A DNA stretch of 32,000 bases, taken from the NCBI GenBank assembly GCA_050749405.1, contig JBOGRD010000015.1, positions 4,581 to 36,580 of the forward strand. The letters run 5' to 3'. Positions 2,131 through 26,245 of the stretch are shown in pieces. The position numbers were made by a program, and so were the translations under genes. This stretch comes from Nitrosotalea sp. (lineage in GTDB: Archaea; Thermoproteota; Nitrososphaeria; Nitrososphaerales; Nitrosopumilaceae). Numbering within the stretch: position 1 is the stretch's first letter; every line of letters begins with the position of its first letter. The notes under the pieces were generated by a model, which worked only from the letters and a program-made list of their open reading frames with translations, made no database searches and had not been told where the DNA came from.

Positions 2131-2484
2131 TTACATTGCTTTACATGAGCATTCTGTAACCACTGCACCCTTTCTTGATGCAGCCCATTGCAATAATGGA
2201 ATAATAATATGATACAGTTTAACACCATCGTCGGTTAGACTATATTCAGTTCTTGGAAGCTTTTCATCAAAATCTTTTCTGAGTATCAATCTGTTTGATT
2301 GCAGTTCATTTAATGTATTTGTCAAGGATTTTGCTGTAATCCCTTTCAATTCTCTTCCTAATTCGTTAAACCTGATGCTTTTATGATTGCCGATCTCGTT
2401 GATTACAAGCAAAGACCATTTCTTGCTTATTATGTCAATTACACCCTGTAGGGGACAGAAAAGCACAATACTTTCTCGTTTCAT
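2131..2484 (-). CDS. HxlR-family winged-helix transcriptional regulator (paralog 1)
   Basis: 117 aa. Shows the HxlR signature CPLQGVIDIISKKWSLLVINEI...FNEL...GITAKSLTNTLNELQSNRLILRK...PRTEYSLT. The C-terminal tail is ECSCKAM. Confidence 0.85.
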   Translation of the reverse strand: MKRESIVLFCPLQGVIDIISKKWSLLVINEIGNHKSIRFNELGRELKGITAKSLTNTLNELQSNRLILRKDFDEKLPRTEYSLTDDGVKLYHIIIPLLQWAASRKGAVVTECSCKAM

Positions 2485-3383: not shown

Positions 3384-3866
3384 CTACATTTTACATGCAA
3401 TCTTGACATTCTTTGAGGTATAGTACAATGAAATTGCCAGGACAATAATTGCCGCCAATTTCAGTTCTAATCCTTGAAATGGGAATAATGCCAAAGCGCC
3501 ACCAAGACCAAATACGCCTAACAAAGGTGCAGTACATACAGGACATCCTGATGCTATTACTCCAGTAAAGGCACTACATGCGCTGGAACCCGCACCCTTT
3601 TTGAAACCCAAACTTCCTGTCATATGTTTTCTACAAAGAATCAGTGCTGTGTTTAACCCTGTCAGTATTGCTATGATAAAGCCCATAGCCACTGTGGTTA
3701 CAGTGAAAGATATTCCGTACATTTGGATGTATTTTGGTAACGGAGTAGGCGTAAAATCAAAAGTGAGTGACCAAAAGAGCGCGCCTAACGATACTGAAAT
3801 TACGATTGCAGTGATGGCATAAGCTGGTTTTTTTAACACTTGACCAACGGTACTCATGTTGCTCAT
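3384..3866 (-). CDS. 160-aa four-segment membrane protein with intramembrane CPVC motif (paralog A)
   Basis: Hydrophobic segments AYAITAIVISVSLGALFWSL, ISFTVTTVAMGFIIAILTGL, ACSAFTGVIASGCPVCTAPLLGVFGLGGALALF and LKLAAIIVLAISLYY. C-terminal ...IACKM. The start overlaps the thioredoxin stop in an ATGA junction (3863-3866). Confidence 0.75.
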   Translation of the reverse strand: MSNMSTVGQVLKKPAYAITAIVISVSLGALFWSLTFDFTPTPLPKYIQMYGISFTVTTVAMGFIIAILTGLNTALILCRKHMTGSLGFKKGAGSSACSAFTGVIASGCPVCTAPLLGVFGLGGALALFPFQGLELKLAAIIVLAISLYYTSKNVKIACKM

Positions 3867-4240
3867 TTTGCCTGCACTTTCTTTGTTAGTGATGAACTCT
3901 GTGAAAGGCAGTTAGGAATTGTAGTAAGCATTTTATCAAGTTCTAAGACAAGTTTTTCTTTTGTCATGTATCCAACAAGCTCTCCTACGTTTCTACCGTC
4001 ACAAAACATCCTAAGAACCGGGATTCCCATTATACCGTTTGCCTGTGCAATGTCCTCATGTTCCTCAACGTTTACCTTGGCAAATCCCAACTTTCCTTCA
4101 TACTGCTTTGAAACTTCGTCAAATATTGGCATTAGTTTCATGCACCAAGGGCACCAGGGAGCCCAGAAATCAACTATTACAGGGATTTTTGATGATGCTA
4201 CTCTGTCCTGCCAGTCGTTTGAAATATCAATCGTTGCCAA
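3863..4240 (-). CDS. Thioredoxin (variant active site WCPWC)
   Basis: 125 aa. VIVDFWAPWCPWCMKLMPIFDE...GIMGIPVLRMF is the canonical thioredoxin layout. It must start at TTG 4240, directly abutting the upstream TAA, because the active site lies upstream of any in-frame ATG. Confidence 0.85.
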   Translation of the reverse strand: MATIDISNDWQDRVASSKIPVIVDFWAPWCPWCMKLMPIFDEVSKQYEGKLGFAKVNVEEHEDIAQANGIMGIPVLRMFCDGRNVGELVGYMTKEKLVLELDKMLTTIPNCLSQSSSLTKKVQAK

Positions 4241-4460: not shown

Positions 4461-4820
4461 ATGAAAAACCAAAGTAATGCAATTTGTTTGTGTCCGCTCG
4501 ATGGCGTAATAGATACAATTGGGAAAAAATGGGGGCTATTGATAATAAACGAAATTGGCAACCACGGTAAACTTAGATACAATGAATTAATGTCAGAACT
4601 GAAAGGAATCAGTCCCTCAACGCTGGCTTCAATGCTAAAGGATTTGGAAAAAGAAGATCTTATCATAAAAGAGGTTTTCAGAGAGATTCCTCCAAGAGTA
4701 GAATATTCACTGTCTGCAAGAGGCAAGGAACTTCGAGAGGCAATAATTCCACTGATAAGATGGGCTACCAAGAAAGGAAACTATACAGTTCACTGTACTT
4801 GCAGTCTAGTTAAGAAATAG
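4461..4820 (+). CDS. HxlR-family winged-helix transcriptional regulator (paralog 2)
   Basis: 119 aa. CLCPLDGVIDTIGKKWGLLIINEIGNHGKLRYNELMSELKGISPSTLASMLKDLEKEDLIIKEVFREIPPRVEYSLS. C-terminal tail HCTCSLVKK. Divergent from the Cys-rich/thioredoxin/membrane operon across 58 bp. Confidence 0.85.
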   Translation: MKNQSNAICLCPLDGVIDTIGKKWGLLIINEIGNHGKLRYNELMSELKGISPSTLASMLKDLEKEDLIIKEVFREIPPRVEYSLSARGKELREAIIPLIRWATKKGNYTVHCTCSLVKK

Positions 4821-4887
4821 ATGACCATTAGATATGGAACAACATTGTCTTATGTCCCCGAGTTTGAATTTCTAATTCAAGCTAATC

Positions 4888-4900
4888 TTGAACTGTTCAA
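4888..4900. promoter_or_regulatory. 13-bp palindrome TTGAACTGTTCAA (site 1, upstream of the Csa3-like regulator)
   Basis: Perfect TTGAAC-T-GTTCAA, 37 nt upstream of GTG 4937. It is preceded by TTGAAT-N5-ATTCAA (4864-4880), and a half-site GTGAACTGTTTG abuts the start. Confidence 0.5.
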
Positions 4901-4936
4901 ACCAATACTTTAGTATCAATTAAGAGTGAACTGTTT

Positions 4937-5590
4937 GTGACTCCAAAGACTCTCCAGATAGCTACTTTTGGGCAAGATAAAGAGGGCATACTTGCGGGTT
5001 TACGCAACTTTCCGATTCATAAACTCATCTTACTCCATTACAAAGATGATGTAAAACTGGTAGAAGAATTTTCAAGTAATCTTCGCTCCACCCTTGGCAT
5101 TTCTATCTCTCTTAGACTAATTGCACAACCCGACATAATTCGAAGTGCCATGGAGTATGTTTCTCAAATCATAAAGGAAGAGGGAGCAAACTATGAGCAA
5201 ATTTTGATAAACGTAAGTGCGGGCGACAAAATGATAGGTTGTGCAGCACTCTCCTGCGCATTTGTAAATGGAATCAAGGCATTTGGGACTGACATGGAGG
5301 GAAATCCAATGCTTTTGCCTATCTTGAAGCTAAGTTACAACGAGATGATCTCTGACGCAAAGATCAAGATTTTACATGCAATAGACAATGCGGGAGGCTC
5401 GGTAGAAAGCCTTGATAATTTATCAAAACACTGTGAGTTTGGAAAACCACTTTTGAGTTATCACATACACGGGAGTTCGGAATCAAAGGGCTTGGTTCAG
5501 CTTGGACTTGTAGATGTTGAAAGATTAGAACGTGGGAGAACCAAGATTACCCTGAATACCCTAGGCAAGATGCTTATTTCTACGAAATAG
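4937..5590 (+). CDS. Csa3-like regulator: Rossmann/CARF-like N-domain plus C-terminal winged helix
   Basis: 217 aa, GTG start. The N-domain pattern LQIATFGQDKEGILAGL...HKLILLHY...ILINVSAGDKMIGCAAL resembles the Csa3/CARF layout (TMGF...; TGG/MR-type loop). The C-terminal part KIKILHAIDNAGGSVESLDNLSKH...GLVQLGLV is wHTH-like. The call rests on pattern resemblance only. Confidence 0.6.
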   Translation: MTPKTLQIATFGQDKEGILAGLRNFPIHKLILLHYKDDVKLVEEFSSNLRSTLGISISLRLIAQPDIIRSAMEYVSQIIKEEGANYEQILINVSAGDKMIGCAALSCAFVNGIKAFGTDMEGNPMLLPILKLSYNEMISDAKIKILHAIDNAGGSVESLDNLSKHCEFGKPLLSYHIHGSSESKGLVQLGLVDVERLERGRTKITLNTLGKMLISTK

Positions 5591-5740
5591 TTTCGATATT
5601 CCTCGTATTACCATATCTATTGGACAGGTCTCACAGTATACGGTGTGATTTGCCTGATGTTGTTCCAATTTCTCTTTTGATTCAAATTCCATATTGCATT
5701 CTGTGCATATATTCTTCGGCTCTTTTTTTTGATTTGCCAT
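5561..5740 (-). CDS. Small C2H2 zinc-finger protein, 59 aa (below ORF-track cut-off)
   Basis: Hand translation: MANQKKEPKNICTECNMEFESKEKLEQHQANHTVYCETCPIDMVIRGISKLFRRNKHLA. Contains C-x2-C-x12-H-x3-H. The 3' end overlaps the convergent 4937..5590 gene by 30 nt. Confidence 0.45.
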   Translation of the reverse strand: MANQKKEPKNICTECNMEFESKEKLEQHQANHTVYCETCPIDMVIRGISKLFRRNKHLA

Positions 5741-5777
5741 TGATACACCATATGCAAATTAGCATAAAAGGAATTCC

Positions 5778-5790
5778 TTGAACTGTTCAA
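5778..5790. promoter_or_regulatory. 13-bp palindrome TTGAACTGTTCAA (site 2, upstream of membrane protein 5850..6407)
   Basis: Identical 13-mer 60 nt upstream of ATG 5850. The flank CTTGAACTGTTCAATTTTTAATTCGATGATTTGGAAAAA resembles the flank of site 3. Confidence 0.5.
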
Positions 5791-5849
5791 TTTTTAATTC
5801 GATGATTTGGAAAAATACCTTTAACTGATTATTTTGGATTGGATATTAG

Positions 5850-6407
5850 ATGACATACAAACTTTCACAATATCCAAGAAAAGCATCGATCGGATACGGG
5901 GCAATAGCAGGCTTTGTTGCAGGGATTGTGATGATGGGCGTTGCCATGTCAACAACTGTAATGATTGGCATGCCATATGATACAATACCAAAAGCCATAG
6001 GAACTGCATTTGGTTCTCAATCAGATAATGCCGTGGCAGCAGGCCTTGGAATGCATCTTCTAACAAGCACACTGGTTGGAATAATTTTTGGCATTGTGAC
6101 TTTTAGCGCACGCAAGCTGCAAATAACAGGACTTGGGAAGGGTGTAGGATTGGGACTGGTTACAGGGATGATAGCGTTTGTTGCAATATCAATACCCGTC
6201 ACAACCAACGTGCTTCCACCGATACTTGTCAAGTTTATAATGCACATGCATCCTGGGATGACCCAACAGATGGCAATGGGCGTATTGCAGCAGAAAAAGA
6301 TGCTTATCACGTCAACTGCCATACTAAGGCATTTGGTGTATGGCGCCATACTTGGAGTAATGACAACAGTGTTGGTACTGCGAAGGAAGGCAAAGACTGT
6401 ACAATAA
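5850..6407 (+). CDS. Integral membrane protein with His-bearing helices (paralog of C-terminal half of 7262..8050)
   Basis: 185 aa. The motifs GMHLLTSTLVGIIFG and ILRHLVYGAILGV match MAHLITGTAIGAAFG and LLIHLIYGFILGV in the 262-aa neighbour. Confidence 0.75.
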   Translation: MTYKLSQYPRKASIGYGAIAGFVAGIVMMGVAMSTTVMIGMPYDTIPKAIGTAFGSQSDNAVAAGLGMHLLTSTLVGIIFGIVTFSARKLQITGLGKGVGLGLVTGMIAFVAISIPVTTNVLPPILVKFIMHMHPGMTQQMAMGVLQQKKMLITSTAILRHLVYGAILGVMTTVLVLRRKAKTVQ

Positions 6408-6476
6408 CGACTGGTTGTATGTCAGAGTAGGTGTGCATGATACAGTCGTTACAACGACTCGTCCGAACATGACAGG

Positions 6477-6513
6477 GATTCACACTGGTAGCGAATCCTT
6501 GAGGATTCAAATC
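6477..6513. repeat. Dispersed repeat R1, copy c (GATTCACACTGGTAGCGAATCCTTGAGGATTCAAATC)
   Basis: Contains nested palindromes GGATTC-N11-GAATCC and GAATCC-TTGA-GGATTC. In one frame the end reads GFKSF, like the RGFKS block of IS transposases. Confidence 0.8.
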
Positions 6514-6590
6514 TTTTAACTCTGACCTACAAAAGCAGATCTAGTAGAAATTCTAGCTATGCGTAAATATTGCGATTTCCTATTTATTGT

Positions 6591-6830
6591 ATGGTCAGCC
6601 TAGGTACAGCAAAATTAGCTGGAGTCATTATGACAATAGGCATAGTTGCCATGGCAGGTACCAACTTAGCCTTTGCACAACAACCATCATGTGGAGAGCA
6701 AGCTTACGGATACATCGGGTGTACTCCACTAGGTGCAGCACAATTGTATGGAGGCGTTTTGGTGGCAGGGGTAGTTGCTTTTGCCATAGCATGGGGAGTA
6801 GCGGGGCGCCAATACCATACGATCCCATAA
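6591..6830 (+). CDS. Small secreted/membrane-anchored 2-Cys protein
   Basis: ATG at 6591 inside track ORF 6570..6830. Signal-like LAGVIMTIGIVAMAGTNLAFA, then QQPSCGEQAYGYIGCTPLG, then a C-terminal hydrophobic helix. Confidence 0.45.
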   Translation: MVSLGTAKLAGVIMTIGIVAMAGTNLAFAQQPSCGEQAYGYIGCTPLGAAQLYGGVLVAGVVAFAIAWGVAGRQYHTIP

Positions 6831-6907
6831 CTTCAACTAAGATCTCAAACCTGAACGGAGTCAATGCCTAGAACAAATCATGATTCATCAACCAAAGGAA
6901 ACAGAAA

Positions 6908-6931
6908 AATCAACCGATAAGGTGGCAGTTC
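6908..6931. repeat. Repeat R2, copy 1 (ATCAACCGATAAGGTGGCAGTTCC)
   Basis: Matches 16473-16497 apart from 3 positions. A degenerate tandem unit lies immediately upstream (ATCAACCAAAGGAAACAG). Confidence 0.7.
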
Positions 6932-6961
6932 CTTGAAAACTATTTTGTATCCTGTAGGAAT

Positions 6962-7123
6962 TTAGCTAAAGTCAAACAAAAACTTTGATGGATCAGCGTC
7001 AAACTCAGACTTACAGTTGGAACAACAAAAGTAGACGTCCTTTCCATCCATGGTTGATTTCAAGCTAGTTTGTCCTGCATCCACTTCCATACCACAAACG
7101 GGATCGATTGCCATTTCTGTCAT
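6962..7123 (-). CDS. YHS-domain (TRASH-type metal-binding) protein, 53 aa (below ORF-track cut-off)
   Basis: Hand translation: MTEMAIDPVCGMEVDAGQTSLKSTMDGKDVYFCCSNCKSEFDADPSKFLFDFS. DPVCGM...YFC(C)S..C..F...P is the YHS-domain consensus. Confidence 0.7.
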   Translation of the reverse strand: MTEMAIDPVCGMEVDAGQTSLKSTMDGKDVYFCCSNCKSEFDADPSKFLFDFS

Positions 7124-7261
7124 ATAATATGCAGAAGTGCAATATAACTACGATCTAAATATCAGTAGACATTAGAACTTCAGACTTATAATCATCTGCC
7201 CATGTAGTAGAGATCCTGACCTACTGCGTAAATACTGGAATCACGTATTATATGCAAGGAT

Positions 7262-8050
7262 ATGGCGTCAGCAACACATGTCACTTGGGGCCTTGGTAAC
7301 TCACTTATCATATCGCTGATTGCCATTCTGTATATTCTACTTCCACTGCCTTTCTTTTTAATTGGAAAAGCTGACAGCAAAACCATATTGAGCTTTTACC
7401 AGTATACATTACCATTTCTTTCCGGCGGTTTGATTCTGCTCTTTCTATTCAAGCAGAACAGAATAGTCACTCCTACAAAAAAAGAGAAGGAAAGAATTGG
7501 CTCAGAGAGAAGGCAGATAATCAGGCTGGGTACACTTGCAGGTTGTGTAGCCTCATTTTCCATATTAGTGCCAATATTTTTGGGCGAGTACTTTACTAAT
7601 TTACCTGAAGGTACGTATCTATCAGTACTTGGGGCGGTGATGGGCAATTATATCGGAAATACCCATTACAGTTTTCTACTGGGTTTTATGGCACATCTGA
7701 TAACCGGTACTGCCATAGGCGCAGCATTTGGTTGTATAATGTCGATATCTGAGATCTTTGATTTGAGGCGTCAAAGTCAGACAATAGCATTTGGCACAGG
7801 TGCAGGCTTTATCACTTTTCTGGCCCTTTTCAATCCCATCTCCCGCCTAGGTATCGAACCGTATCTGCAACAATCGCTACAAATTACAATGAGCGGTGCT
7901 AACCAAATAGCAATTGAGAATGCCGCAAGGAACATAATGTCGAATTTGCTGGCAGGCTCTCTTCTCATACACCTAATTTACGGATTCATACTGGGGGTAA
8001 CTTTTTACACTCTGGCAAGAAAGTATTCCAGGTTCGGTAGATATTACTAG
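7262..8050 (+). CDS. Integral membrane protein, paralog of 5850..6407 with N-terminal extension
   Basis: 262 aa, multi-pass. Shares the His-bearing helix motifs with the 185-aa protein. Confidence 0.75.
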   Translation: MASATHVTWGLGNSLIISLIAILYILLPLPFFLIGKADSKTILSFYQYTLPFLSGGLILLFLFKQNRIVTPTKKEKERIGSERRQIIRLGTLAGCVASFSILVPIFLGEYFTNLPEGTYLSVLGAVMGNYIGNTHYSFLLGFMAHLITGTAIGAAFGCIMSISEIFDLRRQSQTIAFGTGAGFITFLALFNPISRLGIEPYLQQSLQITMSGANQIAIENAARNIMSNLLAGSLLIHLIYGFILGVTFYTLARKYSRFGRYY

Positions 8051-8118
8051 TGAACCCCAGTTCTACTTTTTTGTTCTGGTTACTGTAGGGCCTGCGGTTA
8101 CAGAATGTTCTTGTAAGA

Positions 8119-8229
8119 TTATGCGTTGAGCCAACAGCAACAATCATCCAGAGTGCAATTTGGACATTCTCTTCCCGATTTCCTGGATTTGCACTCTTCT
8201 GGCAAACACCCGCAATCTGCACATGTCAT
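8119..8229 (-). CDS. Very Cys-rich 36-aa peptide (9 Cys), zinc-ribbon/metallothionein-like (below ORF-track cut-off)
   Basis: Hand translation: MTCADCGCLPEECKSRKSGRECPNCTLDDCCCWLNA. The ATG lies 19 nt downstream of the stop of the 8248..8730 membrane gene on the same strand. A different-frame 78-aa track ORF (7986..8222) looks random. Confidence 0.4.
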   Translation of the reverse strand: MTCADCGCLPEECKSRKSGRECPNCTLDDCCCWLNA

Positions 8230-8247
8230 TTTACTATTCAAACATGG

Positions 8248-8730
8248 TCACTTTGTAATCTTACACTGTGCTGTTATCCCCTTCACGGAAACATAGTAAG
8301 TGTATCCCAAAATACCAATAGAAACCAGACGTAACGGAATCTCATAGTTAGTAAGAAAGGCAGTTGCAGTCCCACCAACGGCCCCAAATGCCGATACAAT
8401 TGCAAATCCAATGGACCCACAGCTGCAAGTTCCGGCACTTGCTCCAATTATGGAACCCAAAAATCCAGTTCCTGATTTCCTAACTCCACTTTTCATCAAT
8501 CTAATACGATAGATGCTAAGGCTAATGACAATTCCAGATAGAGCTGCAACTATTACAATTAAAACAAAATTAGCAATCTCATATGTTGGAACATAAAAAA
8601 GAAAATTTGGTGAAAAGAAGATAAATTCCGAGATTATAGAGAGAGCTATTAGTAGAGATGAAAATATGGATATGGTCAAAGCTAGGTATCTTTTTCTTGA
8701 AAAGACTAGTCGTAATGCTTCTCTTTGCAA
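8248..8730 (-). CDS. 160-aa four-segment membrane protein with intramembrane CSC motif (paralog B of 3384..3866)
   Basis: Same length and architecture as paralog A. GSIIGASAGTCSCGSIGFAIVSAFGAVGG aligns with GVIASGCPVCTAPLLGVFGLGGA. Shared C-terminal YY.S.K...A.CK. TTG start. Confidence 0.7.
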   Translation of the reverse strand: MQREALRLVFSRKRYLALTISIFSSLLIALSIISEFIFFSPNFLFYVPTYEIANFVLIVIVAALSGIVISLSIYRIRLMKSGVRKSGTGFLGSIIGASAGTCSCGSIGFAIVSAFGAVGGTATAFLTNYEIPLRLVSIGILGYTYYVSVKGITAQCKITK

Positions 8731-8789
8731 TCTACCCTTTCAGGGTGAAACAAATTATTTAACAATATTTCCAATTTGAGTATATTATC

Positions 8790-8802
8790 TTGAACTGTTA
8801 AA
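8790..8802. promoter_or_regulatory. Palindrome variant TTGAACTGTTAAA (site 3, divergent region between 8248..8730 and DsbA-like gene)
   Basis: 12 of 13 positions match. The flank CTTGAACTGTTAAAGTTTTGATTGATTTG...ATTTGGAAAAAA parallels site 2. Confidence 0.45.
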
Positions 8803-8881
8803 GTTTTGATTGATTTGAGTTTCATCTCAGAATCAATTTGGAAAAAAGGTTAAATCATAAAACCCAGTCTAAACTGCAGCA

Positions 8882-9805
8882 ATGAAACAAATTCATAGAT
8901 TATTTGTTCTATCTTCTATCTTGCTGATTGCTGGTACTTCTTATGCTTATGCTCAATATGGTGATAACATGCAAGGAAATAGCATGATGAATAATACGAT
9001 GTCTGGCGGGGGATCTAGCAGCAACCAAGCCATGATGAATGATAAGAACATGTCAAGTAGCATGATGAACGGTGGAAACATGTCAGGTGGCGGCTGGGGC
9101 AACAACAATACAATGATGAATGAAAGTAGCATGATGATGTCAAGCGGTAGTATTGATCTGTCAATGGCATCACCAGTACGAGGTTCTACAAGTGCTCCTG
9201 TTACAATAGTTGAATTTGGGGACTATCAGTGTCCAAAGTGTGATGCATGGTTCAAAAATGAAGAGCCTGCCATCCAGTCCAATTACATTGATACCAATAA
9301 GGCCAAGCTATACTATGTCGACTTTCCGTTCTTGGGTGCTGATTCACCAGTGGCAGCCCAAGCTGCACATTGTGCGGGAGATCAGGGAAAGTACTGGGAG
9401 TATCATGATTATTTGTATGCCAATCAACAAGGCGTTCAAAGCGGATGGGCAAGTGCAGACAACCTGAAATCATATGCTGCTACTTTAGGACTTGATACAG
9501 CCAAGTTCAACTCTTGCCTTGATTCTGGGAAATATGCTGACGCAGTATCCCATAACAAGGACATCGGAGTTTCAAAGGGAATACAAGGAACACCGGCATT
9601 TTTCATAATTGGACCCACCGGTACCATGACTGAGATCATGGGACCGCAACCTGCATCTGAGTTTTCTACGGTAATTGACCAAATAAGCACTCAGACAGTA
9701 CCTGAGTTTGGTTCCATTGCATCAATTGTGTTAATCGTTGCCGTAATTAGTGTAGTCGTGTTAACTGCAAAAACTAGAGTGACCTCAAGACTGAATTTGG
9801 TTTAG
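8882..9805 (+). CDS. DsbA-family thiol:disulfide oxidoreductase with Met/Asn-rich N-region and PEFG-type C-terminal anchor
   Basis: 307 aa. Signal peptide (LFVLSSILLIAGTSYAYA), then a low-complexity Met-rich segment, then the DsbA-like core VTIVEFGDYQCPKCDAWF...GIQGTPAFFI. The C-terminus is VPEFG plus a hydrophobic helix plus a basic tail. Confidence 0.85.
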   Translation: MKQIHRLFVLSSILLIAGTSYAYAQYGDNMQGNSMMNNTMSGGGSSSNQAMMNDKNMSSSMMNGGNMSGGGWGNNNTMMNESSMMMSSGSIDLSMASPVRGSTSAPVTIVEFGDYQCPKCDAWFKNEEPAIQSNYIDTNKAKLYYVDFPFLGADSPVAAQAAHCAGDQGKYWEYHDYLYANQQGVQSGWASADNLKSYAATLGLDTAKFNSCLDSGKYADAVSHNKDIGVSKGIQGTPAFFIIGPTGTMTEIMGPQPASEFSTVIDQISTQTVPEFGSIASIVLIVAVISVVVLTAKTRVTSRLNLV

Positions 9806-10088: not shown

Positions 10089-10283
10089 TCACTCCAGACT
10101 TTCTGCTAGCTTGTCAAAGGATTGGTTCCATCCCTGCTTCATATTATCTAGCATTGTAAAATTGATTACCTCCGTAGTGGGATATTTCAAAGTCATTTTT
10201 GTCTTGCCGCCTTGATCTTCAAAAGCAATCGGAAACCCTTCATCACAGGCATATCTTTTAATAGTTATGTAACCATAATGTTG
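10089..10283 (-). pseudogene. 3' fragment of an SRPBCC/AHSA1-like gene (about 64 C-terminal codons, no start)
   Basis: Hand translation: QHYGYITIKRYACDEGFPIAFEDQGGKTKMTLKYPTTEVINFTMLDNMKQGWNQSFDKLAESLE. The ending ...GW...F.KLA..LE is typical of this fold family. The frame is closed by a stop at 10284-10286, where the AbiEi region begins. Confidence 0.5.
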
Positions 10284-10295
10284 TTAGAAGACATT

Positions 10296-11117
10296 ATGGT
10301 AGCACAGAAATTAAGACTAGGCCCTACAGAATTAAAGCTATGGCTCACACTGGAGAAGGAAGGGAAGTCTGTCTTCAAGACGGATGACGCGTATAGGATT
10401 TTAGGAACAAGCAAGGACTCTGTGAACACTGCCCTTTACAGGCTCAGAAATAAAGGAAGAATTAGGGAGATAGAACGTGGCAAATACCTCCTGATCCCTG
10501 CCAAATCAGGAATTGAAGGCAAGTGGGCTGAAACGCCCTTTCTTATTGCGTCAGAACTCGTGCATCCACACTACATTGGTTTCTGGTCTGCGCTAAATTA
10601 TTGGGGCATGACAGAACAGGTGCCTGATATAACATATGTAGTTACAACAAAAAGAAGGAAAAAGAAAGAGCTAACATATGGACCAATCAATTTCGAGTTC
10701 ATCACACTTTCAAAAAAGAAATTCTTTGGAATCGTAGAAGAGAAAATCGAGGACGGAGCATTTAACATCTCTTCCAGAGAAAAAACAGTCGTAGATTGTC
10801 TTTTGTATCCGCAGTACAGCGGTGGCATTGACGAAACGATTAAGGGAATATGGGAATCACAGGACGAGCTTGACTTTGAAAAGATTCTTGATTACTCCAA
10901 GAAAATAGATGTGGATGTTGTCACCCGCAGAATTGGATACATACTGGATATGCTTGGAATTAAAAGTGACATTACGGAAAAAATTGCAAAAGAAAAGCCG
11001 AAAGGTTTCATGTGGCTTGACCCAATCGGACCAAAGAAAGTTCTAGATTATGCGAAGAAATATGGTCTTATCATAAACAGGACAAAGAAGGATCTGACTA
11101 GCTGGATGGGATACTAA
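10296..11117 (+). CDS. AbiEi-family antitoxin / wHTH transcriptional regulator (type IV TA)
   Basis: N-terminal wHTH-like LKLWLTLEKEGKSVFKTDDAYRILGTSKDSVNTALYRLRNKGRIREIERGKYLL. Placed directly upstream of an AbiEii gene with a 1-nt stop/start overlap. Start uncertain: ATG 10296 or 10278, while the track start at 10212 is probably too long. Confidence 0.8.
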   Translation: MVAQKLRLGPTELKLWLTLEKEGKSVFKTDDAYRILGTSKDSVNTALYRLRNKGRIREIERGKYLLIPAKSGIEGKWAETPFLIASELVHPHYIGFWSALNYWGMTEQVPDITYVVTTKRRKKKELTYGPINFEFITLSKKKFFGIVEEKIEDGAFNISSREKTVVDCLLYPQYSGGIDETIKGIWESQDELDFEKILDYSKKIDVDVVTRRIGYILDMLGIKSDITEKIAKEKPKGFMWLDPIGPKKVLDYAKKYGLIINRTKKDLTSWMGY

Positions 11118-11911
11118 TGATCAGCAAAGACGAGCTAAAGAGATTGGCGGGAGAGAAAAACATCAATGTGTCATCTCTGAGCAAGGACTATGCTCTTGGA
11201 TGGATCTTGTTTGGAATATCAAAAAGCTCTGTAACAAACAAACTTGTATTCAAGGGAGGAACAGCACTTTCCAAAATCTACTTTCCGGAAAACTGGAGGC
11301 TCTCAGAGGATTTGGACTTCACCATACTTGATACGGAAACTGGTCTTGATTCAATAGTAAAGATACTCAAGAACGAAGTACCCGCTATAATTCAAAGAGA
11401 AAATGGGATGATAGTGGTTTTGAAGGACAGACCACATACCAACGTAGGTTACCTTCAGAGCAGGTTCCAGTATACGGGTCCTCTCGGAAAAGATATTATA
11501 AAGATCGAGATCTCAAGGGAGGAGGTAATTGGCGAATTCAAAATTGAAAGGGTTCCACGTGTTTTTGATTATCCGGAATTTGAGGCATGTGTCTACTCGC
11601 TGAAAGATATTCTTGCTGAAAAGATGCGTTCCATGCTACAGCGCAAGAGGATAAGAGACTATTATGATGTTTGGAGATTGCTGAAAGTAAGAAAGTTCGA
11701 CAAGGAAAAAGTGACGAATCTATTTTTGGAAAAATGCAAGAGCAAAGGAATTCAGTTCAATGATGTGGACCAATTCTTTCCTGATGATCTAGTTAGTACG
11801 CTTGAACCCTATTTGGAAAAAGGACTTGGCAGGTTAAGCAGAGAGAAACTTACTCCCATCCAAACAATTCTTAATGAATTAAAAAAGTCGTTGAAAGAGT
11901 TTCTTGGATGA
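11117..11911 (+). CDS. AbiEii/AbiGii-family nucleotidyltransferase toxin (type IV TA)
   Basis: 264 aa. The motif LVFKGGTALSKIYFPENWRLSEDLDFT matches the family signature (KGGTAL...R.SEDIDF). Confidence 0.85.
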   Translation: MISKDELKRLAGEKNINVSSLSKDYALGWILFGISKSSVTNKLVFKGGTALSKIYFPENWRLSEDLDFTILDTETGLDSIVKILKNEVPAIIQRENGMIVVLKDRPHTNVGYLQSRFQYTGPLGKDIIKIEISREEVIGEFKIERVPRVFDYPEFEACVYSLKDILAEKMRSMLQRKRIRDYYDVWRLLKVRKFDKEKVTNLFLEKCKSKGIQFNDVDQFFPDDLVSTLEPYLEKGLGRLSREKLTPIQTILNELKKSLKEFLG

Positions 11912-16647: not shown

Positions 16648-17751
16648 TCATGGAAGTGAAGGTGGAGTTGTTGCTCCAACCGGTGTTGCAGACGCGGTAT
16701 TAGACGGTTCACTTGTTCCAACTGAATTAATTGCCGAGACACGGTAGGTGTAGGTTGTCAGTGGAAGTACATTTGTGTCTGAATAAGTGGTTCCAGTTTT
16801 GCCAGTGTTTGCAACAAGAGTTGACCACGTATTTCCATTGTCAGTTGATCTCTCAATCATGTATCCTGTTATTGGAGTACCACCATTATCGCTTGGTGCA
16901 TTCCAGCTTAGATTGATTTGTAAAAGATTAGCTGTTGCAGTCAATCCGGTTGGAGGTGTTGGTACTACATTGAATGTAGTTGCGGTTGCAGTGTTAGATG
17001 GAGAGCTTGTTCCAACCGAGTTTATTGCAGATACTCTGTATGTGTATGTGGTACTGTGTACAAGTCCTGTATCAGAATATGTTGTTCCAGCAGAACCAGT
17101 ATTAGCTACAATTGTAGTCCAGGTCGTTCCACCATTGGTTGACTTTTCAATCATGTAACCTATGATGGAAGACCCGCCATTGTTTGAAGGTGCAATCCAT
17201 GATAAAGCAACTTGGGCATTACCAGCTGTTGCCCGTAGATTTTGTGGGGCAGATGGTGGCAGATACGGATTTTTCCAATATACATTAAATGTAATTCCAT
17301 TTGTTGTAAACCAATAATACTTGTAGTTTACGTTTGTAGCAGGATTATATGTACCTGGGAAGCCAACGTTTTCACTAAAAGTAAGGTTTTGATTAGGACC
17401 TGCACCAGAACATTGACTTTGGTCATATCCAAGTGTATTGTCGTAAGTCCAAATTTGCCCAGGCTGGGTATTGCCTTGACTACTCTGGTTTGCAACCTTA
17501 ACATTAACTGTCAAGGAGAATGTCTGGTTATTTAGCATCTGAAAGGATACATTGTTTTTCAGCGGATAGTAAGATTGGTTTCCAGCAATTATTGTAGCAT
17601 TGGTAATGTATGCGTTATATTGGTTGGTACAAGATGGCGGACCCATTGCAAATGCATTGTGTGAAATCATGCCAATTGATATTAGGAACAGTGAAGCAAA
17701 AATAAGTATCAGCCAATGATTCCTGCCATTGCTACTTTTCAGTAGATACAA
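16648..17751 (-). CDS. Secreted protein: variable N-domain plus two fibronectin type III domains (tandem paralog 1)
   Basis: 367 aa. Signal peptide ending AFA. Two FN3 repeats (PSAPQNLRATAGNAQVALSWIAPSNNGGSSIIGYMIEKSTNGGTTW...YTYRVSAINSVGTS). TTG start. Confidence 0.85.
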   Translation of the reverse strand: MYLLKSSNGRNHWLILIFASLFLISIGMISHNAFAMGPPSCTNQYNAYITNATIIAGNQSYYPLKNNVSFQMLNNQTFSLTVNVKVANQSSQGNTQPGQIWTYDNTLGYDQSQCSGAGPNQNLTFSENVGFPGTYNPATNVNYKYYWFTTNGITFNVYWKNPYLPPSAPQNLRATAGNAQVALSWIAPSNNGGSSIIGYMIEKSTNGGTTWTTIVANTGSAGTTYSDTGLVHSTTYTYRVSAINSVGTSSPSNTATATTFNVVPTPPTGLTATANLLQINLSWNAPSDNGGTPITGYMIERSTDNGNTWSTLVANTGKTGTTYSDTNVLPLTTYTYRVSAINSVGTSEPSNTASATPVGATTPPSLP

Positions 17752-17927: not shown

Positions 17928-19067
17928 CTAGGGAAGCGATGACTGCGTTATTGGACCAACGGAAGTTGTGGCTGATGCAATATTCGATGGGGAGCTTGTT
18001 CCAACATCATTGATTGCCGAGACACGGTAGGTGTAGGTTGTAAGTGGAAGTACATTCGTATCAGAATATGTAGTAATTGTACTGCCGGTATTGGTCACAA
18101 GTGTACTCCAAGTAGTACCACCATCAGTTGACCTTTCTATCATGTAACCTGTAATCAGAGTTCCACCGTTGTCACTTGGTGCATTCCAGCTTAGATTGAT
18201 TTGTAAAAGATTAGTTGTTGCAGTCAAACCTGTTGGCGGTGTTGGCACTGTATCAAATGTTCTTGCTGATGCGGTATTGGATGGAAAGCTGGTGCCTATC
18301 GAGTTTATTGCAGAGACTCTATACGTGTAGGTAGTGCTGTGTACAAGTCCAGTATCTGAATAGGTAGTAGAAGTGGATTCGGTGTTAGCAACAACAGTAG
18401 ACCAAGTTGTACCATTGTCTATAGATCTCTCTATCATGTAACCTGTAATTGCAGAACCACCGTTATTTGCAGGAGCTGTCCATGATAGATTGATTTGCGA
18501 TGATGATGTTGCGGTAGCAGAAAGATTTGTTGGTATTCCAGAAGGAGTTATAAACTGAACATTGTATGTTATGTGACCGCCAGGATAAAACCAACTGTAA
18601 AAGTTAACAGATTGTAAATACCCTGGATATGATGGTGTGTTTGGGTTATAAGGCAGATTCCTAGAAACAGTCACGTTTTGGTTAGGACCTACAGTGGTGG
18701 TTGTTCGGTCCGGAATGCAGTGACCATTACCATAAAACCATACATCATCATCGTACCACGTGGTACCGTTAAGTGTATTGCCCTGAGAACTTGTGCTTGG
18801 TGTGTGTATGACAAATTTTACACTATAACTACTGCCAAAATTCACATCAAACGTTACACCCGGATTTGCTATCGCATCAAATGTTTGACTCCCGTTGTTA
18901 ATTATGAAAGACGTTATTGGCCCATCATATCTATTAGTACATGTTCCCGGTGCATCACCCATTGCAAATGCATTGTGTGCAAACATACCAGATAATACTA
19001 AGAATAATGATGCAAAAACAAGTATTAGCCAATGATTCCTGCCATTGCTACTTTTCAGTAGATTCAA
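17928..19067 (-). CDS. Secreted protein: variable N-domain plus two fibronectin type III domains (tandem paralog 2)
   Basis: 379 aa. The N-terminus is near-identical to paralog 1 (LLKSSNGRNHWLIL.FASLFL), and the two FN3 repeats are highly similar at the nucleotide level. TTG start. Confidence 0.85.
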   Translation of the reverse strand: MNLLKSSNGRNHWLILVFASLFLVLSGMFAHNAFAMGDAPGTCTNRYDGPITSFIINNGSQTFDAIANPGVTFDVNFGSSYSVKFVIHTPSTSSQGNTLNGTTWYDDDVWFYGNGHCIPDRTTTTVGPNQNVTVSRNLPYNPNTPSYPGYLQSVNFYSWFYPGGHITYNVQFITPSGIPTNLSATATSSSQINLSWTAPANNGGSAITGYMIERSIDNGTTWSTVVANTESTSTTYSDTGLVHSTTYTYRVSAINSIGTSFPSNTASARTFDTVPTPPTGLTATTNLLQINLSWNAPSDNGGTLITGYMIERSTDGGTTWSTLVTNTGSTITTYSDTNVLPLTTYTYRVSAINDVGTSSPSNIASATTSVGPITQSSLP

Positions 19068-21600: not shown

Positions 21601-21629
21601 CGCGTATAGTCTCTATGTATGTGACTGAA
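21601..21629 (-). other. 23S 3' trailer half of the processing helix
   Basis: The reverse complement of 21601-21632 (CAGTTCAGTCACATACATAGAGACTATACGCG) pairs with 24630-24660 (TTCAGTCACATA / internal loop / GACTATACACG). This resembles an archaeal bulge-helix-bulge type processing stem. Confidence 0.6.
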
Positions 21630-24628
<2,999 letters not shown>

Positions 24629-24773
24629 ATTCAGTCACATATTACACGACTATACACGACGATCATCGCTAGTGCCGGGTCTCGACTACCAGCTACGTCC
24701 TTCACCGGATAGTTTCCTATCCAGTTGCATCTTTTGTGAAGAAAGTGTGTGAACCCACACAACCCAATTTTCT
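24629..24773 (-). other. 16S-23S internal transcribed spacer, no tRNA
   Basis: About 145 nt. It is occupied by the 23S 5' stem half (24630-24660) and the 16S 3' stem half (24738-24758). No cloverleaf-compatible sequence was seen. Confidence 0.7.

Positions 24774-26245
<1,472 letters not shown>

Follow-up and report, generated by a model that had tools for sequence, protein, structure and literature searches.

A 13-base pair (bp) palindrome, TTGAAC-T-GTTCAA, recurs in three promoter regions of a 32,000-nucleotide (nt) stretch of the Nitrosotalea sp. contig JBOGRD010000015.1 (assembly GCA_050749405.1; hereafter, the window), the first of them in front of the gene for a 217-amino acid (aa) regulator of the DUF6293 family. 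This palindrome is a genuine and deeply conserved cis-regulatory element, being non-random, intergenic and located at fixed promoter positions. We consider it probable that TTGAAC-N-GTTCAA is the operator of a homodimer of the DUF6293 protein, which combines a CARF domain with a winged helix, and that it defines a local, autoregulated regulon, probably controlled by activation. In every test that could be computed, the data supported the interpretation given in the initial annotation of this DNA, namely that the palindrome is the operator of a dimeric transcription factor. The system is of a known kind, an autoregulated dimeric transcription-factor operator with a Csa3-like regulator of the CARF-winged helix-turn-helix (wHTH) type. 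[quoted passage not shown] Full-text literature searches returned no description of the palindrome in AOA and, for DUF6293, only a study of a Haloferax protein (PMC11434293).

A pattern search with TTGAACNGTTCAA, allowing at most one mismatch, returned exactly three matches in the window, starting at 4888, 5778 and 8790 (sites 1 to 3; Table 1), all of them intergenic. Dinucleotide shuffles (n = 100) gave an expectation of 0.16 matches with a maximum of 2, and none of the 100 shuffles reached three. The search recovered all three coordinates listed in the initial annotation, and the core that it described as common to the three sites, CTTGAACTGTT(C/A)AA, was correct. Its claim that the window holds no further full copy was also upheld at this threshold across the 32 kb, where there was no fourth copy and the copies with two mismatches were unconvincing. 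The finer details fared less evenly. Of the flanks said to be common to sites 2 and 3, the downstream element ATTTGGAAAAA is real and is kept in other genomes, but the upstream stretch TTTTrATTsGAT is not kept elsewhere. A second palindrome was indeed present at site 1, although only its right half, TTCAAG (4876-4881), is kept across genera (footprint consensus, TTcAAg..AA..TTGAAC). The half-site proposed at the start codon, GAACTGTT, exists but is probably a chance occurrence, since it is restricted to the window and its closest relative, L001.

To place the sites in a wider context, we used a comparative set of 80 AOA loci encoding DUF6293, ranging from Nitrosotalea to Nitrosocaldus, with about 740 kb of sequence for the enrichment counts. 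In these loci, the generalized palindrome TTKAAY-N-RTTMAA is found at a fixed offset 5′ of the DUF6293 gene, starting 49 nt upstream of the start codon in nearly all loci of Nitrosotalea, Nitrosotenuis and other Nitrosopumilales-type genomes, with a central base that is free to be T, A, C or G. At the equivalent place, the Nitrososphaerales and Nitrosocaldus loci carry TTTAAC-N-GTT(A/C/T)AA. The position of site 1 is kept in L001 to L021 and, in the form of TTTAAC/GTTAAA half-sites, in the Nitrososphaerales and Nitrosocaldus loci; site 2 is kept in six loci (L002, L004, L005, L006, L007 and L009), and the arrangement of site 3 recurs in L004 and L002. Conservation upstream of orthologs, on which the operator claim depended, was borne out by the presence of a site with at most one mismatch to TTKAACNGTTMAA in 48 of the 77 DUF6293 upstream regions (centers at -43/-47 or -63/-67), compared with 60 of 661 control regions, many of which are themselves targets. 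The phylogenetic footprint agreed with this result. In an ungapped alignment of 22 promoters, the only conserved blocks were the upstream TTCAAG half-site, the palindrome, and the TATA-like block AAtACTTTAGTA, which begins 4 nt after the palindrome and is invariant in all 22.

The palindrome was also far from equally common in coding DNA. Counted with the generalized consensus TTKAAYNRTTMAA on crude gene calls (greedy longest open reading frames [ORFs]), the Nitrosopumilales-type loci contained 52 matches in 46.6 kb of intergenic sequence and 4 in 190 kb of coding sequence, with 0.39 expected from shuffled intergenic DNA. In the other loci, 48 matches fell in 156 kb of intergenic sequence (shuffled expectation, 2.2) and 3 in 348 kb of coding sequence. 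The density of the motif was thus 36 to 53 times higher in intergenic than in coding DNA.

The way in which the motif varies retains its symmetry. Positions 3 and 11 change together by clade, as G..C in Nitrosopumilales and T..A in Nitrososphaerales, and at orthologous DUF3179 promoters the symmetric variant TTGAAT-N-ATTCAA stands in for the canonical site. This maintained dyad symmetry around a free center points to recognition by a dimeric protein. Copies of the variant were noted in L012 (4081, -), L013 (7956, -), L019 (4734, -), L020 (3724, -) and L021 (7960, -), in each case exactly 14 nt 5′ of an ATYTGGAA box, and at least two of these promoters (L012 and L013) drive DUF3179. The variant dyad may be a site of lower affinity or a site for a DUF6293 paralog. 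The symmetric variants, the dyad and the free central base argue for a dimer rather than for the asymmetric contacts of transcription factor B (TFB) with its recognition element (BRE). One site, moreover, serves divergent promoters at two different spacings. That the palindrome is instead a core promoter element, read for example, together with the second conserved box ATYTGGAAMAA, by one of the many alternative TFB paralogs present in AOA, or a structural or repeat element, is therefore extremely improbable, even though the spacing between palindrome and TATA-like box is fixed and the second box is common to many promoters of the neighborhood, including some that lack a good palindrome. A stable hairpin is impossible with a spacer of 1 nt, and a mobile repeat would have conserved flanks, which are not seen here. 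Explanations of the hairpin, terminator, mobile-repeat and CRISPR kinds were rejected on the grounds of this 1-nt spacer, the unconserved flanks and the absence of arrays.

Two promoter layouts could be distinguished. The proximal layout, used by the regulator gene and by a 59-aa zinc-finger gene, places a TATA-like box 7 nt beyond the palindrome and the start codon about 21 nt beyond that box. The distal layout consists of the palindrome, 12 to 14 nt, ATYTGGAAMAA, 3 to 5 nt, a TATA-like box, about 30 nt and the start codon; it serves the 185-aa gene from site 2 and, on the minus strand, the 160-aa gene from site 3, as well as DsbA, DUF3179 and DoxX genes in other loci. At the regulator promoter, we interpret CTTTAGTA, 21 nt before the GTG start codon, as a TATA box, which would make the mRNA leaderless or nearly so; the equivalent of this box in Nitrososphaerales is CTTATTA(C/G). 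It follows from this arrangement that sites 2 and 3 are bidirectional control elements. The initial annotation had correctly placed site 2 upstream of the 185-aa membrane protein gene (plus strand) but overlooked the conserved 59-aa zinc-finger gene (minus strand) on its other side. Site 3 lies, as described, in the divergent region between the 160-aa and DsbA-like genes, with the same spacing to the 160-aa gene (minus strand) as that of site 2 to the 185-aa gene, but a longer one to the DsbA-like gene.

The second box typically lies 14 nt downstream of the palindrome. In the Nitrosopumilales loci, 11 intergenic copies of ATYTGGAAMAA have a palindrome (at most one mismatch) exactly 14 nt upstream. 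The box also occurs at a few neighborhood promoters without a good palindrome (many loci have it, for example L005 at 2437, L019, L020 and L021) and is absent from the remaining promoters in the window. Possible roles are those of a variant BRE, recognized by an alternative TFB, and of a site for a second factor. A metagenome-wide scan with the composite pattern TTGAACNGTTCAAN{13,15}WTYTGGAA gave 106 matches, almost all of which, judged by their flanks, were apparently chance occurrences in non-AOA sequence; only the matches in L150 and L180, both belonging to the 185-aa family, resembled AOA promoters.

The most likely binder of the palindrome is the DUF6293 protein. The regulator scored 36.1 bits against Pfam PF19810 (HFX_2341-like) over residues 7-116, above the cutoff of 30, and its 1,429 homologs carry PF19810 and are named DUF6293 by NCBI. 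Sequence identity among 14 AOA representatives ranged from 60 to 97%. Invariant positions include T10, N92-x-S94-x-x-x-K98 and G169KPLLSYH176, and the segment N92-V-S-A-G-D-K98 matches the CARF signature [DN]x[ST]xxx[RK]. In Foldseek, the best matches to the AlphaFold2 model were the Csa3 structures 6wxq_A, 6w11_B and 2wte_B (about 230 aligned columns; E-values, 5e-7 to 1e-5), followed by the CARF domains of Can2, Cam1 and Csm6. Against the Csa3 family TIGR01884, the sequence reached only 21.7 bits over residues 8-187, below the cutoff of 60.2, and a profile search against PDB sequences gave no relevant match and no Csa3. Given this sub-cutoff score and the lack of a PDB sequence match, the label 'Csa3-like' in the initial annotation is right as a description of the modeled architecture, with full-length matches at the fold level, but not as a statement of family membership. 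The segment GKPLLSYH lies in the predicted winged-helix region and does not vary in any AOA clade, which fits the equally invariant AAC-N-GTT core of the motif; in our reading of the model, helix 170-178 would be the recognition helix. Some genomes encode two DUF6293 paralogs, such as L005 and L016, which derive from one metagenome-assembled genome.

Other proteins encoded nearby were weighed as binders. Within 6 kb, homologs of the HxlR-family regulators occur in only about 8 of the 80 loci and homologs of the zinc-finger protein in about 13 of 80, whereas the motif 5′ of DUF6293 reaches Nitrososphaerales and Nitrosocaldus. In the window, neither HxlR gene has the palindrome in its own promoter, and a lone C2H2 finger is not known to be able to read a dyad of 13 bp. 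It thus seems quite improbable that one of the two adjacent HxlR proteins, the 59-aa zinc finger or an unlinked regulator binds the palindrome, with DUF6293 as a target only, despite the fact that HxlR genes, thioredoxin and redox genes adjoin in several Nitrosotalea loci. HxlR-family factors commonly sense thiol or electrophile stress, which would fit the CxxC-rich targets.

If the DUF6293 protein is the binder, its dimer would recognize TTKAAY-N-RTTMAA in its own promoter and in mostly local promoters. The regulon would consist of the C2H2 zinc-finger protein and of proteins that are exported or membrane bound and carry CxxC, CxC or Met/His-rich motifs, represented in the window by the DsbA-like, 160-aa CxC and 185-aa Met/His proteins and in other AOA by DUF3179, DUF7482, DoxX and a cupredoxin rich in Met. 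A small molecule would be sensed by the CARF domain, and activation would be ligand dependent, with the bound dimer helping to recruit TATA-binding protein (TBP) and TFB and thereby producing positive autoregulation. Every site is on the upstream side of the inferred BRE/TATA; none overlaps it or lies downstream. Sites upstream of BRE/TATA in archaea usually activate, as for TrmB/TrmBL1 and SurR. Csa3a recognizes an imperfect palindrome located immediately upstream of promoters, which it activates (PMC5587795). Activation is favored on account of this upstream position and of the Csa3a precedent.

The same operator and factor could also work in the opposite direction, with the dimer beside BRE/TATA blocking TFB and TBP at its own and the zinc-finger promoters until a CARF ligand releases it. 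We regard repression as rather unlikely but still a serious alternative: the usual activation from such positions and the behavior of Csa3a speak against it, and the distal site, about 30 nt 5′ of the TATA-like box, is too far away for simple occlusion. In its favor, HFX_2341 represses many genes, and the proximal palindrome ends 7 nt from the TATA-like box, where the BRE would be.

Several observations weigh against an activating DUF6293 dimer as the reader of the palindrome. The proximal site abuts the expected BRE and could occlude TFB, and the half-sites are just 7 bp apart from center to center, which is tight for winged helices in successive major grooves. HFX_2341, the sole characterized DUF6293 member, behaves as a repressor (PMC11434293). 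The model of the regulator is of moderate confidence (predicted local distance difference test [pLDDT], 74.7), with a disordered stretch at residues 110-137, and GKPLLSYH, being invariant, does not co-vary with the G/T shift that distinguishes the motif between clades. An unlinked factor could recognize the palindrome. Nitrosocosmicus loci have a degenerate or different upstream motif. The loci were gathered through the DUF6293 gene, and distant site density was sampled just in 27 kb of the window and L187. With that scope, the density is 3.1 sites per kb at distances up to 150 bp from the regulator gene and declines to 0.09 per kb at 4 to 7 kb, and no site was found in the 19 kb of the window beyond 7 kb or in the L187 extension (about 5 kb), in agreement with the earlier proposal of a local regulon. 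The upstream regions of the Nitrosocosmicus DUF6293 paralogs (L063 to L080), which lack a good TTKAAC-N-GTTMAA while their GKPLLSYH is unchanged, carry other conserved blocks, such as ATTAATTGTTAAA and AGTTAAAA…ATTCAA…AATTAGAA.

Candidate targets of the putative DUF6293 operator were defined as clusters of the genes reading away from each palindrome site. Besides the regulator itself (33 loci/members), the most frequent family was the DsbA-like oxidoreductase (11), followed by the 185-aa Met/His-rich membrane protein (7), the DUF7482 exported protein (7; also in Nitrososphaerales), DUF3179 with a CPLC motif (6), DoxX (4), a 189-aa membrane protein with GCCG (4), the 160-aa CxC membrane protein (2) and a Met-rich cupredoxin (2). 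In different genera, the site centers of the target genes are typically 63 to 66 nt from the start codon. Since these proteins are exported and rich in CxxC, CxC, Met or His, their sequences suggest a function in extracytoplasmic thiol-disulfide or copper/metal handling.

The 59-aa zinc-finger ORF, which falls below the 60-aa ORF cutoff, is transcribed away from site 2 and toward the regulator gene, with which it has a 30-nt overlap at the 3′ end of the latter. Its product (C-x2-C-x12-H-x3-H and a second CxxC) showed 71 to 85% identity in tblastn searches of L001 to L009, with weaker matches in L012, L015, L017 and L018, and its conserved promoter consists of the palindrome, 7 nt, CTTTTAT, about 22 nt and ATG. 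The 185-aa and 160-aa proteins had no Pfam or NCBIfam match. A 262-aa protein encoded between them is a distant paralog of the 185-aa protein (tblastn matches on the same regions of other loci), and its gene has no upstream palindrome. The 160-aa and DsbA-like genes are consistently paired (L013, L015, L019 to L021 and L040). They are divergent in Nitrosotalea, whereas in Nitrosotenuis they share a strand and stand head-to-tail, the 160-aa gene coming directly after the DsbA-like gene in what looks like an operon, and the pair diverges from DUF6293 with a common control region. This adjacency indicates an old synteny rather than a mobile island. The 'island' of the initial annotation is therefore better described as a conserved, vertically inherited AOA neighborhood of uniform G+C content. 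The 160-aa protein may be a membrane redox partner of the DsbA-like protein, in a DsbB- or VKOR-like role. The N terminus of the DsbA-like protein contains a low-complexity region of about 70 residues rich in Met, Asn, Ser and Gly; the Nitrosotenuis orthologs (about 220 aa) lack this Met-rich insert.

Table 1. Palindrome sites, promoter elements and genes of the window (positions numbered from its first nucleotide)
Feature	Position	Strand	Description
Site 1	4888-4900		Perfect palindrome (TTGAACTGTTCAA); center 43 nt 5′ of the regulator GTG; proximal layout
Upstream auxiliary element	4864-4881		TTGAAT-N5-ATTCAA(G) at site 1; dyad itself 4864-4880
TATA-like box CTTTAGTA	4908-4915	+	7 nt after site 1, 21 nt before the regulator GTG
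Start-codon half-site GAACTGTT	4928-4935		Probably chance
Site 2	5778-5790		Perfect palindrome (TTGAACTGTTCAA); divergent control region, with the proximal layout toward the zinc-finger gene (-) and the distal layout toward the 185-aa gene (+)
TATA-like box CTTTTATG	5763-5770	-	Zinc-finger gene; 7 nt from site 2
Second conserved box ATTTGGAAAAA	5805-5815	+	14 nt after site 2; 3 nt before TATA-like CTTTAAC (5819-5825)
Site 3	8790-8802		TTGAACTGTTAAA, 12/13; common to the divergent 160-aa and DsbA-like genes
Second box AATTGGAAATA	8766-8776	-	160-aa gene; followed by TATA-like TTAAATAA (8755-8762, -)
Second box ATTTGGAAAAA and TATA-like box TTAAATCA	8836-8857	+	DsbA-like gene; box at 8836-8846, starting 33 nt after site 3; TATA-like box at 8850-8857
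DUF6293/PF19810 (HFX_2341-like) protein, 217 aa	4937-5590	+	N-terminal CARF-like domain, C-terminal winged helix; candidate operator-binding regulator
C2H2-type zinc-finger ORF, 59 aa	5561-5740	-	Candidate target at site 2
Met/His-rich polytopic membrane protein, 185 aa	5850-6407	+	Recurrent candidate target; site center 64-66 nt from start codon
Distant paralog of the 185-aa protein, 262 aa	7262-8050	+	
Membrane protein with GTCSCGS motif, 160 aa	8248-8730	-	Candidate target of site 3, distal layout; center 66 nt from TTG start
DsbA-like Thioredoxin_4 protein	8882-9805	+	CPKC active site; PEFG-CTERM sorting signal (Pfam, NCBIfam)
HxlR-family regulator	2131-2484	-	
Thioredoxin	3863-4240	-	
HxlR-family regulator	4461-4820	+	
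AbiEi/AbiEii type IV toxin-antitoxin pair	10212-11911	+	Directly 3′ of the DsbA-like gene
N-terminal acetyl-CoA synthetase ORF, 225 aa	14583-15260	+	Probably a truncated gene or pseudogene
Fibronectin-type-III surface-protein gene	16648-17751	-	
Fibronectin-type-III surface-protein gene	17928-19067	-	
Complete archaeal 16S-23S rRNA operon	21626-26244	-	

The closest homologs of the proteins encoded in the window are from Nitrosotalea and other AOA, and G+C content is uniform (37 to 44%) outside the rRNA operon. The ORFs scanned contained no cas domains, and no CRISPR or repeat array was present in the 32 kb. The AbiEi/AbiEii pair ends the conserved neighborhood and may be linked to the location of the DsbA/160-aa pair 3.8 kb from the regulator gene, compared with its adjoining position in L002 and L004. 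Further downstream, the 225-aa ORF matched only the N-terminal part of acetyl-CoA synthetase (ACAS_N and the first third of the AMP-binding domain). The two fibronectin-type-III genes are tandem paralogs whose upstream regions of 60 to 70 nt are nearly identical, reading …ctgta(t/c)tgatcttatagg…gagatat(a/g)tattgag(t/c)tt(a/g)gaatacataca TTG.

Four known systems can be compared with the proposed DUF6293 regulon. Short dyads read by dimeric wHTH proteins are familiar in archaea from the TrmB/TrmBL1 TGM and the SurR motif GTTn3AAC, in which one site can serve divergent genes and its position decides the sign of regulation. The protein families and sequences differ from ours, however: SurR uses GTT-N3-AAC, as opposed to AAC-N-GTT within TTGAAC-N-GTTCAA, and no redox CxxC switch is evident in DUF6293. 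With Csa3a and Csa3b of Sulfolobales (PDB 2WTE, 6W11 and 6WXQ), the AOA regulator has in common, at the fold level, the two-domain architecture of CARF and wHTH. Unlike Csa3, it has no cas genes or CRISPR array around it in the window and is vertically inherited across AOA lineages. Its candidate targets are exported redox/metal proteins rather than defense or DNA-repair genes. As for the cyclic tetra-adenylate (cA4) bound in the CARF pocket of Csa3, the features seen in the AOA regulator are the conserved N-x-S-x-x-x-K motif and T10, and cA4 is not to be expected where a lineage lacks type III systems.

HFX_2341 of Haloferax mediterranei belongs to the same family, PF19810/DUF6293, and is a global transcriptional regulator with a repressive effect, as determined by deletion and overexpression; its targets include transport and cas genes, and the paper gives no DNA-binding site or autoregulation (PMC11434293). 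HFX_2341 is conserved irrespective of the presence of CRISPR and, like the AOA protein, vertically inherited. For the AOA protein, the wHTH fold and the putative operator 5′ of its gene suggest a role as a transcriptional regulator. The two differ in length (308 aa for HFX_2341 and 217 aa for the AOA protein), and the AOA operator, promoter layouts and target set are not described in the Haloferax work. In Nitrososphaera viennensis, a motif, TTCSGSMTTTGWACYANT, has been reported 5′ of genes whose expression is induced when copper is limiting; it is located -35 to -70 from the start codons, sometimes on the opposite strand, and precedes DsbD, CopC/D, a multicopper oxidase and exported proteins without known function (Reyes et al. 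2020, PMC7785015). This motif comes from the same phylum, contains a TTGWAC hexamer and shows a theme similar to that of the Met/His/Cys-rich targets. Unlike the palindrome, it is not a dyad: its second half is YANT rather than NGTT, and its GC-rich left arm is missing here. A scan of 59 Nitrososphaerales loci with TTCSGSMTTTGWACYANT placed none of its matches at a palindrome site, and a number of these matches looked similar to the conserved T-arm sequence of tRNA genes. A link between the two motifs was thus unsupported, although not refuted, as the window sites have just TTGAAC in common with the copper motif and the Nitrososphaerales loci gave no co-located matches.

Almost nothing is known about specific pairs of transcription factor and operator in AOA, which are hard to grow and lack genetic tools. 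Our findings offer a pair that can be tested, consisting of a protein of 217 aa and a site of 13 bp, with defined layouts and a candidate regulon of surface redox/metal proteins, which matter in organisms whose energy metabolism depends on copper enzymes. For the DUF6293 family, this would be the first proposed operator, and it would place a Csa3-like CARF regulator outside CRISPR defense, raising the question of what the CARF domain senses where cyclic-oligoadenylate synthases are mostly missing. A bolder scenario, which we hold to be possible but doubtful, is that an AOA-wide CARF sensor uncoupled from CRISPR immunity reads a nucleotide-type second messenger and activates surface thiol-disulfide and copper/metal genes through a code made up of the dyad and ATYTGGAAMAA, the latter box possibly being read by an alternative TFB. 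If true, this would reveal a new signaling axis in a globally important lineage of nitrifiers and a housekeeping role for CARF domains.

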